UHGV virus genome: UHGV-1480788
Length of the DNA stretch: 29,922 nucleotides
Source: a virus
Direction: 5' to 3' (one strand)
The notes below the pieces were generated by a model that was not told where the DNA came from, did no database searches, and saw only the letters and a program-made list of their open reading frames with translations. The first letter of the stretch is position 1; each line of letters starts with the position of its first letter. Below are positions 18,709-29,922 of this stretch, piece after piece. Both the position numbers and the translations under genes were made by a program.

Positions 18709-19176
18709 TCATCGAAGGCATTGCGTCCTGATGTATTCCTGAAGCGTTCTCAGTGCTGTTTGGTCGCGGATAATTCCGTCCCGGACACCGAGAACGTTTC
18801 GTCCAGCAACTGGAGAGAGTTCGACGGTGGCATCATTGCCCATGCCGGAGGCGCTGGAGGTTTCGGCTGAGGATGGCACAGGGCATTTTCCTTTGACGAG
18901 CACCCTGCCACCATTATCAAGCTTGCGCCGAAGAGCATCATTTTTAGCTTTCGCATCAGCTAACTCCTTCGTGTATTTAGCATCGAGTGCATCAGCAGAA
19001 CGCTGGCGCTGCTGCATGTCAGTAATGGTGGCGGTCGCCTGCTTCAGCTCACTGACTTTTTTATCGCGCTGTTCTTTGTAGGCGATTGCATTATCACGGT
19101 AATGATTAACAGCCCATGACAGGCAAACGATGATGCAGATAACCAGAGCGGAGATAATCGCGGTTACTCTGCTCAT
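18709..19176 (-). CDS. Rz: Inner-membrane spanin Rz
   Basis: N-terminus [30 protein letters not shown].. matches lambda Rz from memory; overlaps R stop. Confidence 0.9.
18750..18956 (-). CDS. Rz1: Outer-membrane lipoprotein spanin Rz1 (embedded in Rz, +1 frame)
   Basis: [19 protein letters not shown] lipobox and Pro-rich [11 protein letters not shown], as in lambda Rz1. Confidence 0.85.
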
Positions 19177-19649
19177 ACCTCAATCTCTCTGACCGTTCCG
19201 CCTGCTTCTTTGAATTTTGCAATCAGGCTGTCAGCCTTATGCTCGAACTGACCATAACCAGCGCCCGGCAGTGAAGCCCAGATATTGCTGCAACGGTCGA
19301 TTGCCTGACGGATATCACCGCGATCAATCATCGGCAAAGCGCCACGCTCCTTAATCTGCTGCAATGCCACAGCGTCCTGGCTTTTGGGAGAGAAGTCTTT
19401 CAGGCCAAGTTGCTTGCGGTAGGCATCCCACCAACGTGAAAGAAGCTGGTAACGTCCGGCTGCTGTTGATTTGAGTTTGGGGTTTAGCGTGACAAGTTTG
19501 CGAGGGTGATCGGAGTAATCAGTAAATAGCTCTCCGCCAACAATGACGTCATAACCATGATTTCTGGTTTTCTGACGTCCGTTATCTGTCCCCTCTGACC
19601 ACGCCAGCATATCGAGGAACGCCTTACGTTGATTATTGATTTCCACCAT
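19173..19649 (-). CDS. R: Endolysin R (lytic transglycosylase)
   Basis: 158 aa; matches lambda R as I recall it over almost the full length ([39 protein letters not shown]...). Confidence 0.95.
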
Positions 19650-19956
19650 CTTCTACTCCGGCTTTTTTAGCAGCGAAGCGTTTGATAAGCGAACCAATCG
19701 AGTCAGTACCGATGTAGCCGATGAACACGCTCGTTATATAAGCGAGATTGCTACTTAGTCCGGCGAAGTCGAGAAGGTCACGAATGAACCAGGCGATAAT
19801 GGCGCACATCGTTGCGTCGATTACTGTTTTTGTAAACGCACCGCCATTATATCTGCCGCGAAGGTACGCCATTGCAAACGCAAGGATTGCCCCGATGCCT
19901 TGTTCCTTTGCCGCGAGAATGGCGGCTAACAGGTCATGTTTTTCTGGCATCTTCAT
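19633..19956 (-). CDS. S: Holin/antiholin S (dual-start MKM)
   Basis: 107 aa; matches lambda S107 from memory, including the Met1-Lys2-Met3 dual start. Confidence 0.95.
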
Positions 19957-24642: not shown

Positions 24643-26082
24643 TCAGAATCCTCCTTTCTTCTTGGACTGCGGTTCCTCGCGTTCACGGCGGCGCATTTCA
24701 GCAGACTGTTGGTCTGTGTCATAAATAGCGCCATTTGCCTGTATGCAATACACCGTGCCGGTATTGCCATGACGATTGAGGCGAAGGATTAGTTCGGTTT
24801 CACCAGGAGGAACGCTGTCATCAAAAGCACCTTCCCGATGGATCCCAACCCAATAATCGCAATCCTGTTCAATCTGCCCTGTATCTCGCGAGTCACTTGG
24901 TAATGGGCGTTTATTGGTTCGGCTTTCCAATGCGCGGTTAAGCTGCGTCAGAAGCACAACAACGCAATCAAGCTCTTTGGCAAGGTTCTTCAGTCCTTTG
25001 GTGATCATGCCGTAAGCAAGGTCGTTGCGATCGGCCTTTTCAGCGGTCATTAGTGTCAGGTAATCGACCAGAATCATGCCAACACATCCTTTTTCTCGCT
25101 TGATTCGACGGCTTTCGCTGACGATTTGAGCCAGAGATAATCCCGGCGTGTCGTCGATGTAAAGCATGTCGATTTCACTCAAGCGATTGGCTGTTTCGAT
25201 CGCCCTGTTGAAGTCACCATCGTAATCACCCTGATAGCCGTCATCAGCGTCATTTGTCGCCGGAAGGTAAAAAATATTCGGGTTAACACCAGACTTCTGC
25301 CCTACCAGTTTTTCCAGTATCTGGTCACCTGGCATTTCAAGGCTGAACATCAGAGCGGGCTTTTTCTCATGCACTGCGCAGTTGATTGCCATCTGGCTGT
25401 ATAGCGTCGTTTTCCCCATCTTAGGGCGAGCGCCAATGACAAACAGAGAACCTTTCACCAGACCTTTCGGTGACAGCATCCTGTCCAGCGATGGGATCCC
25501 TGTGCTCATTCCTCGCTGTTCGCCTGACGGGTCAAATCGCTTCTCAAGGTCGCTAACCCAGTCTTCCATGACCTCACCAAATGAGCGAAGGCCGCGACGC
25601 GATCCGGTTTTTGCATGGTCTGTCAGTTGCGTGAAAATCGCCTGAATAGCTTCGTACTTCTGCGTTGCAGTCATTCCGTTGCGGGAATAGAGCAATTCCG
25701 TCGCTTCAGTCATGCGGTTGATGGCGTAGCGTTCCATTGCGGTTTCACGAACCTGCATTGCATAGGCAACGATGTTTGCTGCGCTTGGCGTGTTCTTTGC
25801 GATCTCAGCGATATAAGCAAAACCGCCAACAGACACCGTTAACGATTTACGCTCCAGTTCATCGAAAAGCGTCAGGCCATCTACTGGCTTTTGCTCCCGG
25901 TGCATTCTGGTTATTTCTTCGAAAAGGATTTTGTGTGGTCGGCTGTAAAATGAATCGGGCTTCAGCATCGCCAGAACTTTCTGGACGCGCTCACTGCTGT
26001 CATCATCCAGAAGCAATCCACCAATCACCGCCTGCTCTGCCTCGATGCTATGGGGCGGCGCATAAAAATTATCGGTCATCAT
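24643..26082 (-). CDS. Replicative DNA helicase, DnaB family
   Basis: Conserved DnaB N-terminus (PPHSIEAEQAVIGGLLLD), Walker A GARPKMGKT, helicase motifs; track start 26094 is GTG, ATG 26082 with GAGGG upstream used. Confidence 0.9.
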   Translation of the reverse strand: MMTDNFYAPPHSIEAEQAVIGGLLLDDDSSERVQKVLAMLKPDSFYSRPHKILFEEITRMHREQKPVDGLTLFDELERKSLTVSVGGFAYIAEIAKNTPSAANIVAYAMQVRETAMERYAINRMTEATELLYSRNGMTATQKYEAIQAIFTQLTDHAKTGSRRGLRSFGEVMEDWVSDLEKRFDPSGEQRGMSTGIPSLDRMLSPKGLVKGSLFVIGARPKMGKTTLYSQMAINCAVHEKKPALMFSLEMPGDQILEKLVGQKSGVNPNIFYLPATNDADDGYQGDYDGDFNRAIETANRLSEIDMLYIDDTPGLSLAQIVSESRRIKREKGCVGMILVDYLTLMTAEKADRNDLAYGMITKGLKNLAKELDCVVVLLTQLNRALESRTNKRPLPSDSRDTGQIEQDCDYWVGIHREGAFDDSVPPGETELILRLNRHGNTGTVYCIQANGAIYDTDQQSAEMRRREREEPQSKKKGGF

Positions 26083-26959
26083 GTTCACCCTCACGAACTT
26101 TCAGGTAGGTATTGTCGTTAAGCAGGAAATCAAATCCCTTTTTGTGCCAGACGGTTCCGCGTTGATGGTTTGGGCGTTCTTCGAACATCCATCGGCAATT
26201 TTCGCCTACGTAGCTCAAATAATTTCTCCAGTCCTGCATCGTGAACCCATGCCCGTCAAGCTGGCGGGTTATCACTCCGGCTTTGCGCCAGAACGTTCGG
26301 ATCTGGTTTTTACGCTTGTCATTCAGTGCGCGGATTCTTGGCGCTTCAGGAAGGATTTCGTGGTAAGCATCGACAACATCCTGACAGCTAACGGAAGGTT
26401 TTTTCTTGTCAGACTTTTTGTCTGCTGTGGCACTCTCTAATACGTCAGTATTAGAGATATTATTTATATTATTGTTTATGGACAACCGTTGGACAACCGT
26501 TGGACAATCTCCGCTGAGAGCCGCGCCATTACTGGTGTTTGCGTTGGACAACCGTTGGACAACCGTTGGACAATTTTTTGCCTGAAAATCGTCATATTTA
26601 ACGATTGTAAACAGGCTAAATTTCTTCCCCATCGAGCAAATATTAAGCATACCTTTCGACTCAAAAGTCCGTAATAAGCTCCGAACTTTGTTGTCGGGGA
26701 TGAATGTTTCTCTGACCAGCGACGGGCGTCCAGTTATCATCTGACCGCGATCAACAGTTATCGGACCGATATCCGTATTGACGACAGTAGATTCGTGATT
26801 AGCCTTGAGGATTAAGTGAAGCCAAAGATGTACTGCCTGAGAGTCCTTATAGAGCCTGCTGTCCATAAACTGGCGGTGTATAGAGACATACCCCATACTG
26901 GATGCCTCCTGATGTTGTACAGGGTTATGCCTGTAATCAGCTAACTTAACGACGCCCAT
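26069..26959 (-). CDS. Replication initiator, lambda O / P22 gp18-like
   Basis: Origin iterons lie inside the gene and encode the repeated peptide CPTVVQRLSN; AGGAG RBS; stop overlaps helicase start; immediately followed by the helicase as in lambdoid replication modules. Confidence 0.8.
   Translation of the reverse strand: MGVVKLADYRHNPVQHQEASSMGYVSIHRQFMDSRLYKDSQAVHLWLHLILKANHESTVVNTDIGPITVDRGQMITGRPSLVRETFIPDNKVRSLLRTFESKGMLNICSMGKKFSLFTIVKYDDFQAKNCPTVVQRLSNANTSNGAALSGDCPTVVQRLSINNNINNISNTDVLESATADKKSDKKKPSVSCQDVVDAYHEILPEAPRIRALNDKRKNQIRTFWRKAGVITRQLDGHGFTMQDWRNYLSYVGENCRWMFEERPNHQRGTVWHKKGFDFLLNDNTYLKVREGEHDDR
26479..26577. repeat. Origin iterons: two clusters of three 11-bp direct repeats (TGGACAACCGT; third copy of each degenerate) followed by an AT-rich tract
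   Basis: Clusters read directly at 26479-26510 and 26545-26577; 11-bp periodicity; AT-rich 26573-26600. Confidence 0.75.
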
Positions 26960-27002
26960 GTTTCACTCCTGCTTTGGCTAGTCTGTAAACACCAACAAGG
27001 CG

Positions 27003-27107
27003 CTATGCGAACGCCCTGTTATTTGCTGCGGCTACCACTAATCCCTCAGGTGAATCAGGGTGTCGAATCTCTTCTTTTTCCTGGTATTTCTTACGACGTT
27101 TTGTCAT
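27003..27107 (-). CDS. Possible small basic protein (34 aa) between cII and the initiator gene
   Basis: Hand-translated MTKRRKKYQEKEEIRHPDSPEGLVVAAANNRAFA; AGGAG 6 nt upstream of the ATG; too short to judge. Confidence 0.3.
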   Translation of the reverse strand: MTKRRKKYQEKEEIRHPDSPEGLVVAAANNRAFA

Positions 27108-27141
27108 AATTACTCCTGTGGATTGATCCAGTCTTTCTACA

Positions 27142-27420
27142 TCAGGCCTCGAAGAATTCGCCGTTCTTCGGGGCTTTTTCTTTTGTCAGCATTCTGGCTA
27201 CTTTCTTAGCCAGTTCCGCCAACTCCTCGTCTTCAACACCCCATTCAAGAACAGCCAGAAGCATTCCCATTTTTGGGATGAAGCTGTCTTTCCATCGCGA
27301 AATTTGCGATTCATTAATCCCTAACGCGTCGGCAACCTTTCGCTGACCACGTACAGCAATTCGATTCAGGATGTTGCTTGTAATTGCATTCGCTTTCTTG
27401 CGAGTACTTGTAAGTTGCAT
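27142..27420 (-). CDS. cII: Transcriptional activator CII
   Basis: ..SQISRWK..IPK..MLLAVLEWGV.. matches lambda CII; leader AAGGAAATACTTACAT-ATG matches the lambda cII leader as I recall it. Confidence 0.85.
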   Translation of the reverse strand: MQLTSTRKKANAITSNILNRIAVRGQRKVADALGINESQISRWKDSFIPKMGMLLAVLEWGVEDEELAELAKKVARMLTKEKAPKNGEFFEA

Positions 27421-27477
27421 ATGTAAGTATTTCCTTAACTAATAAGAAGTTATGCGCATCAACTTATGCGCGTTGTA

Positions 27478-27522
27478 TTCCCGCATTTCGGCGGGAATGA
27501 TGACCATGACTGTTAAAGAGCG
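27478..27522 (-). promoter_or_regulatory. nutR: boxA (CGCTCTTTAAC) plus boxB hairpin (UUCCCGC-CGAAAU-GCGGGAA)
   Basis: boxA close to the consensus CGCTCTTTA; 7-bp stem hairpin 14 nt downstream; located 6 nt after cro stop; identical boxA/boxB recur at nutL. Confidence 0.65.
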
Positions 27523-27528
27523 GTGTTA

Positions 27529-27723
27529 CTATTTGTTTTTCTTGTTGCTTGGGAAAGGACGAACTTCCTCTCCAATCACACTGCCATCAGGCTTTACCGT
27601 AACCATGATGTTACGGCCTGCCAGAATGGCCTTGCTGATAGCGCACTGGATTACACCAAAGTCACTGGCTGCTTTAGCCTGTCCATGGATTTTGGCGTAA
27701 TCGGCAAGTGTCATTCGAATCAT
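27529..27723 (-). CDS. cro: Cro repressor
   Basis: ..[35 protein letters not shown]...DGSV..EEV.PFPSNKK aligns with lambda Cro; track start 27729 is GTG, ATG 27723 with GGAG upstream used. Confidence 0.85.
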
Positions 27724-27752
27724 ATGCACTCTCCGTTATTAACCATGAACAA

Positions 27753-27823
27753 AGAATACTACAGGTATTCAAAGCAATCAATACTCAGGGTATTTTTAGT
27801 TTAAGTACCTTAGCTATTAGAAT
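27753..27823. promoter_or_regulatory. OR region: operators AATACTACAGGTATT (27755-27769), AATACTCAGGGTATT (27780-27794), weaker AGTACCTTAGCTATT (27804-27818); divergent pR and pRM
   Basis: Palindromic 15-mers AATAC-N5-GTATT spaced 25 bp; pR -35 TTGATT / -10 TATTCT overlaps sites 1-2; pRM -10 TAGAAT ends 7 nt before the cI ATG, implying a near-leaderless cI mRNA. Confidence 0.6.
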
Positions 27824-27829
27824 TAAGCT

Positions 27830-28546
27830 ATGGAAAATAAAAAATCACTGACGACAGAACAGCTGGAAGACGCTAAGCGTCTTAAGGCTTTGTATGAGTC
27901 AAAAAAGAAAGAATTGGGAATAACCCAATACTCAATCGCTGATGAACTGGGTATCACCCAAGGAGCGGTAGGGCATTATCTTAATGGCAGAAACGCGCTA
28001 AACGTTGATGTTGCATCTGGTTTTGCACGATTGTTGCAAGTCTCAATTGCTGATTTTAGCCAGTCAATTGCTGCCAAGGTTGCAGAACAGGCAGAAAGCC
28101 TTAAGAGCGATGCCAACGTAAGGTATGCAGGGGAATACAGAGCAGGAAAGAGGTATCCGGTGTTAAGCAGTATCCAGGCTGGCTCGTGGTGTGAAGCATG
28201 CGAACCATACACCATTAAAGACATAGATGTTTGGCTTGAGTCTGACGCGCATATTCAAGGTAATGCGTTCTGGCTTAAAGTGGAAGGTGATTCAATGACG
28301 GCACCGGTTGGGTTAAGCATCCCAGAGGGAACATTCGTTCTTTTCGATACCGGAAGGGAGGCGATCAACGGCAGCTTGGTCATAGCAAAACTTTCTGACT
28401 CTAACGAAGCAACATTCAAGAAGCTGATAATCGACGGCGGAAATAAATACCTCAAGGGACTTAATCCTGCATGGCCTCTCGTGCCAATCAATGGAAACTG
28501 CAAGATTATAGGCGTTGCAATTGAGACAAAACTAAGGCTGGTTTGA
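27830..28546 (+). CDS. cI: CI repressor (HTH N-terminal domain, LexA/S24-type autocleaving C-terminal domain)
   Basis: N-terminus LTTEQLEDAKRLKALYESKKKELG resembles lambda CI; C-terminus FWL.VEGDSMTAP.GLSIPEG....ATFKKL...G.K.LK.LNP..P...INGNCKIIGV matches P22 C2 / lambda CI. Confidence 0.9.
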   Translation: MENKKSLTTEQLEDAKRLKALYESKKKELGITQYSIADELGITQGAVGHYLNGRNALNVDVASGFARLLQVSIADFSQSIAAKVAEQAESLKSDANVRYAGEYRAGKRYPVLSSIQAGSWCEACEPYTIKDIDVWLESDAHIQGNAFWLKVEGDSMTAPVGLSIPEGTFVLFDTGREAINGSLVIAKLSDSNEATFKKLIIDGGNKYLKGLNPAWPLVPINGNCKIIGVAIETKLRLV

Positions 28547-28563
28547 TCACGCAAGGGGAGATT

Positions 28564-28932
28564 ATGGTTGGAACCGCTATAGCAAGCTTTTTTGGGATGT
28601 TGGCAATCTCGACAATTTACGGCTTAGCGCATGCTTTTATTGCGAAATCTCTATCAGAAAAAATAAGCCAGGCTTGGGCGCATAGATCAGCTCGTTTCAT
28701 GATTCTAGTGATCATAGCAATACAATGGATATCTGCATTTATCCTCTATGGTTCAAGCTTATACCTGTTGTATCAAGGCGCGACATTTACGCCTTACACC
28801 AGTGATTACGGAACGCTATACGATGGTAGTGAAGACATCTCTATGGCTTGGATCGTCTTTGGTTTATCTATGGCCGTGTCTGTTGTAGCAGACATCATTA
28901 AGGTAATTCTCGTCTTAACCTTCGCTGACTAA
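28564..28932 (+). CDS. Small integral membrane protein (3 predicted TM helices), cI-coupled, unknown function (rexAB/sieB slot)
   Basis: ATG 17 nt after cI stop with AAGGGGAG upstream; three hydrophobic stretches of about 20-25 aa; no homolog recognised. Confidence 0.65.
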   Translation: MVGTAIASFFGMLAISTIYGLAHAFIAKSLSEKISQAWAHRSARFMILVIIAIQWISAFILYGSSLYLLYQGATFTPYTSDYGTLYDGSEDISMAWIVFGLSMAVSVVADIIKVILVLTFAD

Positions 28933-29063
28933 CCCATAATCCCGGCAGCAATAGCTATCGGGATCCACTTCACATATCCCGCATAAAAAACACTGAACAA
29001 GCAGACACCGAAAAAATAAATATCCTTTGTATTCATTTGCTTATCATTATTTCACCAAAAATA

Positions 29064-29105
29064 AATACCTTGGGTATTTACACAATAAAATACCTACAGT
29101 ATTCT
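29064..29105 (+). promoter_or_regulatory. OL/pL: operators AATACCTTGGGTATT (29064-29078) and AATACCTACAGTATT (29089-29103); pL -35 TTTACA / -10 TATTCT
   Basis: Same AATAC-N5-GTATT motif and 25-bp spacing as OR; promoter elements overlap the operators and point toward N. Confidence 0.55.
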
Positions 29106-29151
29106 TTAGCCATCAGCAGGACGCTGGAAGCCAAACGGAACAGATTGGCAG

Positions 29152-29192
29152 GCTCTTTAACATTGATGGGATTGTCCCGCCGAAATGCGGGA
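29152..29192 (+). promoter_or_regulatory. nutL: boxA (GCTCTTTAACA) plus boxB hairpin identical to nutR
   Basis: TCCCGCCGAAATGCGGGA at 29175-29192 is the exact inverted copy of the nutR boxB at 27478-27497. Confidence 0.65.
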
Positions 29193-29505
29193 ACCAAAGA
29201 GTAGTTGGCTTTGGGGTGACGTGAAGTGCAGCTGCACGACGGCAACCGGAAGATAAGCACCCGGCGCGTCACCGCCAAAGTCAATTCCATAGGCGTTATG
29301 CAGCCGCCACCATATTCAAGAAAGCTGCACAAGAGGTAGGAGGATTTATGTGAATACTTACATTCAATTGAGAGATTAATTAAATAGAACTGATCGAGCA
29401 GAGTCCATAAAGGCTCATAAATGCTCTTCCATCCCCGTCTAATTGGCGGGGAAGGAAACCACTTTGTAATAAAAAAATTCCAAAGTTGTTTCATCGGAGG
29501 TCAAC

Positions 29506-29805
29506 ATGACAGTAGTCATTACATATCTGGCTGACGATAACGCCAGAAATCGCCGCAGAGCACGCAGACAGGCTCAACGTGAACAGGCAATGCAAGAGCA
29601 GCGACTGGCGCGAAAAATTGCGCTAAAGCTCTCTGGTTGCGTCAGAGCAGACAAAGCATCATCACTTGGCAGCCTTCTCTGCAAGAAGGCAGATGAAGTC
29701 GAGCGTAAACAGAACCGTATTTACTACCGCAAGCCACGCAGTGAAATGGGTGTGACTTGTGTTGGTCGCCAGAAAATGAAATTAGGCAGCAAACCACTTA
29801 TTTGA
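29506..29805 (+). CDS. N: Antiterminator N (arginine-rich motif)
   Basis: ARM NARNRRRARRQAQREQ near N-terminus; C-terminus ..NRIYYRKPRSEMGVTCVGRQKMKLGSKPLI aligns with lambda N C-terminus (..RTWYSKPGERGITCSGRQKIKGKSIPLI); GGAGG RBS. Confidence 0.8.
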   Translation: MTVVITYLADDNARNRRRARRQAQREQAMQEQRLARKIALKLSGCVRADKASSLGSLLCKKADEVERKQNRIYYRKPRSEMGVTCVGRQKMKLGSKPLI

Positions 29806-29813
29806 GGTGAGAT

Positions 29814-29900
29814 ATGGAAGAAGAATTTGAAGAGTTCGAAGAGCATCCGCAGGATGTGATGGAACAGTACCAGGACTATCCGTATGACTACGACTATTGA
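29814..29900 (+). CDS. Possible acidic micro-protein (28 aa, MEEEFEEFEEHPQDVMEQYQDYPYDYDY)
   Basis: GAGGTGA RBS 6 nt upstream; starts 9 nt after N stop; extreme acidic/aromatic composition. Confidence 0.35.
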   Translation: MEEEFEEFEEHPQDVMEQYQDYPYDYDY

Positions 29901-29922
29901 TACAAATCAATGGTGTGGACAA

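Follow-up and report, generated by a model that had tools for sequence, protein, structure and literature searches.

The 29,922-nucleotide virus genome UHGV-1480788 (the window) carries, directly behind its cI repressor gene, a small open reading frame (ORF) that we identify as hkaS of coliphage HK620 (AAK28867; 96.7% amino acid identity). The best explanation of this ORF is that it is an accessory (moron-type) gene in the cargo slot between cI and the left operators (OL) of HK620-type immunity regions, and on balance we lean towards an anti-phage role of some kind for its product. A first-pass annotation of the window had already proposed the ORF as a candidate exclusion or abortive-infection gene. 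Neither hkaS with its position nor the notion of exclusion genes in this slot is new. The HK620 entry (AF335538), annotated in 2001, already gives the layout cI - hkaS - tIMM - OL3/2/1 - pL - nutL - N and lists the hkaS product as "unknown". Added here is the picture of hkaS as a selected, fast-evolving orphan family and as exchangeable cargo, with RexA and BstA among its positional equivalents.

The hkaS coding sequence runs from an ATG at 28564 to 28932 on the plus strand and encodes 122 amino acids followed by a stop codon. A program-made ORF at 28543-28932 (+) opens further upstream with TTG and encodes 129 amino acids; the ATG start is supported because the diverged HkaS homologues, 121-122 amino acids long, all begin at the equivalent Met. 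The cI stop codon TGA occupies 28544-28546, and the spacer to the hkaS ATG is exactly 17 nt (28547-28563). Within it, the purine-rich AAGGGGAG at 28553-28560 was read from the sequence as the hkaS Shine-Dalgarno element, the position of which holds AAGGGGCG, AAAGGA or AAGGAC in relatives. A consensus scan of 27400-29600 found no promoter- or terminator-like site between cI and hkaS, the sole sigma-70-like site of that interval being pL at 29077-29105. Downstream, 85 nt separate the hkaS stop codon from the first of three exact operator sites on the OL side. The earlier description of a 122-amino-acid ORF placed 17 nt behind cI on the same strand, with a strong ribosome-binding site, no intervening terminator and OL/pL just downstream, was thus borne out.

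The window allele shares with HK620 hkaS its identity, the 17-nt spacing behind cI and the operators downstream. It differs in two respects: its Shine-Dalgarno element reads GGAG rather than GGCG (A for C at 28559), which makes it slightly stronger than that of HK620, and residue 55 (28726-28728) is W in this copy alone, where all 64 other Escherichia coli-clade copies have G and the diverged ones V, A or I. HkaS matched phrog_6534, a family annotated as of unknown function, over residues 1-122 of 122 (E 5.9e-78). GC content is uninformative because hkaS (0.42) differs only slightly from cI (0.45).

The evolution of hkaS was compared with that of the adjacent cI. Between the window and a Hafnia-type copy, synonymous divergence (dS) was 0.73 for cI and 0.68 for hkaS; the equal dS indicates that the two genes were inherited together. 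Non-synonymous divergence (dN) was 0.020 for cI and 0.100 for hkaS, giving dN/dS ratios of 0.03 and 0.15, respectively, and among diverged hkaS copies the ratio was 0.15-0.2 with dS saturating. Across 65 E. coli-clade loci the ratio of non-synonymous to synonymous polymorphism (pN/pS) was 0.07 for cI and 0.45 for hkaS, with pS equal in both genes. The HkaS protein changes about 5-7 times faster than the adjacent cI. The substitution pattern indicates that hkaS is under purifying selection, although it tolerates about fivefold more amino acid change than cI, and belongs to a fast-evolving orphan family; its high pN/pS fits either an arms race or relaxed constraint.

The same polymorphism would suit a non-functional ORF, that is, a hydrophobic frame kept only through lying in the 3′ untranslated region of cI, a reading that we consider barely credible. 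Against it stand the dN/dS of 0.15-0.2 at saturating dS and the preservation of frame, length and start at 52% identity, together with 34 invariant residues and a conserved Shine-Dalgarno element. An intact ORF of 121-122 amino acids was present in 63 of 63 loci in which cI was at least 87% identical and downstream sequence was available, none of them carrying a disrupted copy, and the AlphaFold2 model of the protein is confident even with an alignment of seven sequences. Judging by this conservation, hkaS is a real, selected protein-coding gene.

The family is small. A word-indexed search of 5.8 billion proteins returned 12 clusters, and a profile search run exhaustively against 1.84 billion representatives returned two family members, one of them a fragment, and no remote relatives beyond the family itself. 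The database names for the HkaS cluster all read "hypothetical protein". Its hosts are E. coli, Salmonella, Enterobacter, Hafnia and Buttiauxella, and homologues down to 52% identity in the latter four genera always occupy the same position. In complete E. coli genomes the immunity module was found in 146 of 5,426 (~2.7%), always as cI and hkaS together, and carriers include commensal, enterohaemorrhagic E. coli (EHEC) and Salmonella prophages, the EHEC strains being of O145 and O111. The cro-cI-hkaS-OL segment of the window is 98-99% identical in DNA to the HK620 immunity region, and the same segment is carried by HK630, HK140, mEpX2, HZ41, HF4s, vB_EcoP-611R6, phi296/phi367 and two Shiga toxin 2c (Stx2c)-converting phages.

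To examine what occupies the slot more widely, 160 loci encoding relatives of the window cI were surveyed and the first gene past the cI stop codon was read. Wherever hkaS is present it lies 17-20 nt after the cI stop codon, with the operators and the N gene following, while replication, nin and early-left genes around the cI-hkaS unit vary between loci. Ten cargo proteins from the slot were sampled, six of which matched PADLOC models for known or candidate defence proteins:
L014: RexA (PADLOC E 2e-110)
L017, Lonsdalea, cI 69% identical: BstA (PADLOC 1e-115)
L021: PDC-S42
L028: PDC-M63A / DUF6932
L058: PDC-M03A (HipA-like)
L019: NYN protein
L016, 3832-4614: DUF1275 membrane protein
L035, 3885-5114: MscS-like channel
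L024: no match
L085, Ewingella, 3491-3859: an unrelated 122-amino-acid three-helix protein with a zinc ribbon

In the set of loci surveyed, the nearest positional equivalents of hkaS behind related cI genes are therefore RexA, BstA and candidate defence genes. The interval between cI and N has been described as a mosaic hotspot holding rexAB and bstA (PMC8585504). The first-pass annotation had argued from lambda, where rexA-rexB indeed lie downstream of cI and upstream of OL; the location argument is stronger than that annotation could know, because the slot behind related cI genes holds RexA, BstA, PDC-S42, PDC-M63A, PDC-M03A and an NYN protein. Its statement that other lambdoid phages place sieB here is wrong: in lambda, P22, HK620 and HK140 that gene is found beyond N. 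The P22 slot contains no gene. Membrane cargo is common in the slot, which at three further loci (L018, L025 and L055) holds single-helix peptides of 43-50 amino acids.

The survey also bears on whether HkaS serves the prophage itself, tuning its lysogeny, induction or lysis, for example through FtsH/HflKC control of CII/CIII or as an anti-holin-like brake. Co-inheritance with cI at equal dS, the presence of hkaS in every locus with cI at least 87% identical and the conservation of the cytoplasm-facing surface (see below) would all suit such a role. However, hkaS also stands behind a cI of different DNA-binding specificity: in an uncultured Buttiauxella (L038, 3001-4040) it follows, after 20 nt, a cI that shares 88% identity with the window cI in the C-terminal domain and only 26% in the DNA-binding domain. 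This cI shows a clear recombination joint between its two domains. Since its DNA-binding domain is unrelated, hkaS is not bound to one immunity specificity. Conversely, cI proteins with C-terminal domains 87-90% identical to that of the window carry other cargo in Lelliottia, Siccibacter and an IMG/VR contig (L013, L014 and L156), and a Tatumella cI (L016) with an 80% identical C-terminal domain has no hkaS, so that neither half of cI requires hkaS. With the P22 slot empty and the adjacent replication, N and lysis modules varying freely, we regard a prophage-internal role as improbable. The distribution of hkaS is that of exchangeable cargo in a hotspot already known for defence genes, and not that of a part of the immunity switch.

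HkaS has three hydrophobic stretches (residues 3-27, 45-70 and 95-119), in agreement with the three helices noted at first pass, and AlphaFold2 modelled three long helices from a seven-sequence alignment (mean predicted local distance difference test score 92.3), together with a short amphipathic helix at residues 31-38; the second loop forms a small beta-hairpin in the model. The first loop is basic and the second acidic, which by the positive-inside rule places the N-terminus outside and the C-terminus inside; HkaS is accordingly predicted to be a three-pass inner-membrane protein of N-out/C-in topology. Its parts, all on the plus strand, are as follows:
28570-28644: first transmembrane helix (TM1), residues 3-27, variable (hydropathy; AlphaFold2 helix 2-29; alignment)
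28645-28695: predicted cytoplasmic loop 1, residues 28-44, with four K/R and one acidic residue (charge count; invariant columns)
28696-28773: TM2, residues 45-70, with invariant polar Q54 and a Y67/L69/Y70 end (hydropathy, AlphaFold2, alignment)
28774-28845: predicted periplasmic loop 2, residues 71-94, with four D/E and no K/R, variable (charge count, AlphaFold2, alignment)
28846-28920: TM3, residues 95-119, with the invariant intramembrane pair D110/K113, followed by the C-terminus (hydropathy, alignment)

Across eight diverged HkaS sequences, 34 positions are invariant and fall into four clusters. The basic loop and the start of TM2 contribute K33, Q36, W38, H40, A43, R44 and F45 (the loop motif K33-x2-Q36-x-W38-x-H40-x2-A43-R44 running on into F45); the other clusters are the polar positions within the helices (Q54, S106, D110 and K113), the exit of TM2 (Y67, L69, Y70 and T74) and the C-terminus (L118-T-F-A-D122). 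Variation is found in TM1, in residues 57-66 and in the acidic loop. With the topology predicted above, HkaS would turn its conserved surface towards the cytoplasm and its variable loop towards the periplasm.

HkaS was also compared with Pfam, NCBIfam, PADLOC 2.0 and PHROGs. It had no Pfam or NCBIfam match at E<=1 and matched none of the PADLOC 2.0 families at E<=10; the PHROG scan gave only 6534 and no superinfection-exclusion, holin or Imm-type family. No specific fold match was obtained. Remote homology, including profile-profile comparison by hhalign, thus lent nothing to the exclusion function put forward at first pass, in that neither these databases nor the profile search linked HkaS to RexB, SieA, SieB or defence families.

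A positional parallel is lambda RexB, a small polytopic inner-membrane protein encoded in the slot downstream of cI and upstream of OL. Like rexB, hkaS is presumably co-transcribed with cI, with which its layout is compatible. RexB, with four transmembrane helices, has 144 amino acids and needs the sensor RexA, whereas HkaS has 122 amino acids, three helices and no partner gene, as had been remarked. There is in fact no room for one, the free space being 17 nt on the cI side and 85 nt on the side of the first operator, and no rexA-like sensor gene is present next to hkaS, although RexA is detectable where it occurs (L014). HkaS and RexB gave an hhalign probability of 0.7%, and no RexB match was found in Pfam, PHROG or PADLOC.

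This comparison raises the possibility of a triggered pore, in which HkaS oligomers form a channel of the RexB or holin kind that stays shut as long as the lysogen is healthy. Membrane perturbation by a superinfecting phage, or a trigger that the phage supplies, would open the channel, and the resulting loss of membrane potential would abort the infection. Class I holins have three helices in an N-out/C-in arrangement, with which the predicted topology of HkaS is compatible. In addition to this topology and the position shared with rexAB, the invariant Q54, S106, D110 and K113 within the helices are of the sort that a pore or an oligomer interface would have, and a conserved cytoplasmic face suits sensing from inside. 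The channel would nevertheless lack a RexA-like sensor and a cytoplasmic domain, and HkaS is homologous neither to RexB nor to any holin family in Pfam or PHROG. In contrast to class I holins of the lambda S type, its C-terminus comprises only three residues (FAD, in ...TFAD) and has no charged cytoplasmic tail, and hkaS is far from the apparent lysis cluster (ORFs 18709-19956, placed from ORF order only). A pore-former made constitutively and at high level would also be risky for the lysogen. We therefore hold a triggered pore to be rather unlikely.

Several exclusion proteins do act without a partner. Small inner-membrane proteins such as HK97 gp15 and T4 Imm block genome entry in this way. 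HK97 gp15 is cited in PMC13190303. HkaS resembles both in being a small membrane protein without a partner gene, and differs from them in genomic position, in matching no PHROG but 6534 and in not being tied to a virion module. P22 SieA, located in the inner membrane, prevents DNA delivery by itself and belongs to a diverse, fast-evolving family (PMC10883804). SieA (types A-C) is, as HkaS is predicted to be, a prophage-expressed polytopic inner-membrane protein that needs no partner; however, the sieA gene is situated between 16 and 9 in P22-like prophages and its product has the motif FxRYPxEAxxFNK, while hkaS lies behind cI in phages of several virion types. HkaS does not contain that motif and gave an hhalign probability of 0.3% with SieA, the position of which is occupied in this window by a lipoprotein gene (plus an Mnt-like gene) and not by hkaS. 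With P22 SieB the hhalign probability was 0.05%, and the SieB/Esc position beyond N is not shared.

A different kind of parallel is offered by BstA of the Salmonella prophage BTP1, which is encoded immediately downstream of cI and shares the cI promoter (PMC8585504). Its synteny is identical to that of hkaS, and its homologue occupies the same slot in Lonsdalea. BstA itself is a soluble DNA-associated abortive-infection protein of ~300 amino acids with an aba self-immunity element, in contrast to the 122-amino-acid membrane protein HkaS, and the PADLOC model that detects the Lonsdalea homologue gave no match to HkaS at E<=10.

From the gene layout we infer that hkaS is expressed in lysogens. 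It would be translated from both the maintenance (pRM) and the establishment (pRE) transcripts of cI and so be made constitutively; HkaS would insert in the inner membrane with its N-terminus out and its C-terminus in and would exclude superinfecting phages on behalf of the prophage, either by itself or together with a membrane protein of the host. The step that it blocks would be an early, membrane-associated one, most likely the transfer of the incoming phage genome through the inner membrane. We put forward this proposal of a lysogen-expressed, stand-alone inner-membrane exclusion protein that blocks genome entry tentatively, as one whose probability falls short of even. We favour entry block over a triggered pore of the RexB type because no sensor partner accompanies HkaS and only ~20 of its residues are cytoplasmic, because the characterised single small polytopic exclusion proteins (P22 SieA, HK97 gp15 and T4 Imm) act at entry and because a passive blocker is compatible with constitutive high expression.

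Several observations weigh against a block at entry. The best-conserved parts of HkaS (loop 28-45, D110/K113 and LTFAD) are predicted to be cytoplasmic and the periplasmic loop is variable, which is not an obvious pattern for a blocker meeting phage parts from outside. HkaS has no sequence or fold similarity to any of the exclusion or defence proteins searched. The gene moves with the immunity module across virion types, from HK620 (Lederbergvirus) and HK140 (Hendrixvirinae) to HK630 and the Stx2c phages, a range spanning podoviruses, siphoviruses and Stx phages, whereas SieA and gp15 are linked to the virion modules that they protect against. About half of the surveyed slot cargo, such as the MscS-like channel and the DUF1275 membrane protein, has no known defence role. 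Finally, no HkaS exclusion, abortive-infection or toxicity phenotype is on record in the literature searched, which left out Brenes and Laub 2025. That study (Cell Host Microbe) reportedly screened DNA from E. coli prophages for protection from temperate phages, and hkaS may be among the genes that it tested. No paper mentioning hkaS was found, the name being otherwise a fungal herbarium acronym, and papers on SieA, Tai, co-transfer and SNIPE do not mention it.

A further reading makes HkaS a self-sufficient anti-phage protein of a family without relatives, either a minimal, sensor-free abortive-infection pore or an entry blocker working through a conserved host inner-membrane partner. The latter would be independent of the virion type of the carrying prophage, and in either form the conserved cytoplasmic face and the invariant D110/K113 pair would be the working parts. 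We judge this distinctly unlikely.

Another possibility, to which we give a minor share of the probability, is lysogenic conversion unrelated to phages, in which HkaS would alter host physiology and thereby benefit a gut-dwelling lysogen. It might, for instance, modulate a transporter or raise tolerance to a bacteriocin, to an antimicrobial peptide or to stress on the envelope. Among three-helix proteins of 110-115 amino acids are the immunity proteins of pore-forming colicins. The non-defence-looking membrane cargo of the slot (the MscS-like channel, the DUF1275 protein and the 43-50-amino-acid single-helix peptides) and the occurrence of hkaS in commensal, EHEC and Salmonella prophages also suit conversion. 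On the other hand, HkaS matches no colicin or microcin immunity family, nor any other Pfam or NCBIfam family, at E<=1, and strict confinement to prophage immunity regions in a tiny, fast-evolving family is more typical of phage-phage conflict genes.

The window as a whole is a P22-like (Lederbergvirus-type) prophage or phage segment with Gally, vB_EcoP-683R2 and HK620 as closest relatives. The lambdoid control region around hkaS, with a cI 99% identical to that of HK620, occupies its right end:
24643-26094, minus strand: P/DnaB-like gene
26069-26959, minus strand: O gene
27142-27420, minus strand: cII
27529-27729, minus strand: cro
27754-70, 27779-95 and 27803-19: right operator cluster OR1-OR2-OR3 between cro and cI (operator pattern matches; equivalents annotated OR1-3 in HK620)
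27830-28546, plus strand: cI repressor, 238 amino acids, HK620 immunity type (Pfam HTH_3 E 1.5e-9, Peptidase_S24 E 5e-24)
28564-28932, plus strand: hkaS (HK620 HkaS identity, phrog_6534, dN/dS, AlphaFold2)
28939-28964, plus strand: post-hkaS hairpin AUCCCGG.CAGC-AAUA-GCU.AUCGGGAU, without a U-run (RNA fold)
29018-29034, plus strand: third OL operator-like site (exact consensus match; kept in all diverged loci)
29063-29104, plus strand: OL2 (29063-79) and OL1 (29088-104), overlapping pL (operator matches)
29077-29105, plus strand: pL (TTTACA-17-TATTCT)
29506-29805, plus strand: N

The promoters pR and pRM presumably lie within the OR cluster (27754-27819). A window scan for operators found 10 matches at <=2 mismatches where 2.1 are expected, and the three OL-side sites at 29018-29034, 29063-79 and 29088-104 match the consensus AAATAYCNNNNGTATTY exactly. 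In the HK620 record, tIMM is drawn over the stretch equivalent to the exact site at 29018-29034, and OL3 is placed 23 bp further on, over sequence unlike the operators (window 29018-29057); the published OL3 and tIMM assignment may be in need of revision. The hairpin behind hkaS, the place of which is taken by a hairpin of other sequence in diverged loci (L003, L007 and L008), is a possible transcript-end or stability element. An Rfam scan gave no match in 27000-29922.

Two candidates in or next to hkaS were set aside. The operator-like AGATATCCATTGTATTG at 28718-28734 (-), within hkaS codons 52-57 and with two mismatches, is probably a chance match: a window is expected to contain about two of this quality, and L008, L003 and L007 do not keep the site. 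A hydrophobic 35-amino-acid ORF on the minus strand (MNTKDIYFFGVCLFSVFYAGYVKWIPIAIAAGIMG, 28929-29036), considered as a small toxin or partner, is probably not a gene. It is convergent with hkaS, overlaps the hkaS stop codon and the hairpin behind it, and is present in HK620 and HK140; it is absent from the diverged loci, L008 keeping only the C-terminal part, which coincides with the conserved hairpin DNA. Three of the four substitutions in it among close relatives are non-synonymous, including V to D.

Beyond pL, N starts 574 nt past the hkaS stop codon; in HK620 this distance is 368 nt. The additional ~200 bp, located between nutL and N (window about 29220-29500), is also present in HK140, where a 41-amino-acid hypothetical protein is annotated in it; a 138-amino-acid ORF on the minus strand (29078-29494) overlaps this stretch and appears spurious. 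At the other end of the window, between the tailspike gene (369-2330, -) and a gene-16-like ejection gene (3317-5314, -), the interval 2371-3226 (+) where P22 has sieA-mnt contains two genes, one Mnt/Arc-like (99 amino acids) and one lipoprotein ORF (161-173 amino acids). The product of the latter begins MKKSLLIIPLLLVGC, a lipoprotein signal with lipobox, belongs to phrog_6067 (unknown function) and is unlike P22 SieA; it is a second candidate for a prophage-expressed envelope moron.

Taken at this strength, hkaS is best filed with the prophage accessory or exclusion genes cotranscribed with cI, and it is a sensible wet-lab candidate, though hardly a surprise to specialists. Should defence not be its role, hkaS would simply add to the uncharacterised morons, an ordinary finding. 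If the exclusion role is true, HkaS would be a convenient model, being a small protein carried by phages, such as HK630 and mEpX2, that grow on K-12. In that case a very small single-gene membrane determinant would join the known prophage defences; it would help to explain which phages superinfect such lysogens and would bear on the spread of Stx phages and on host range in phage therapy.

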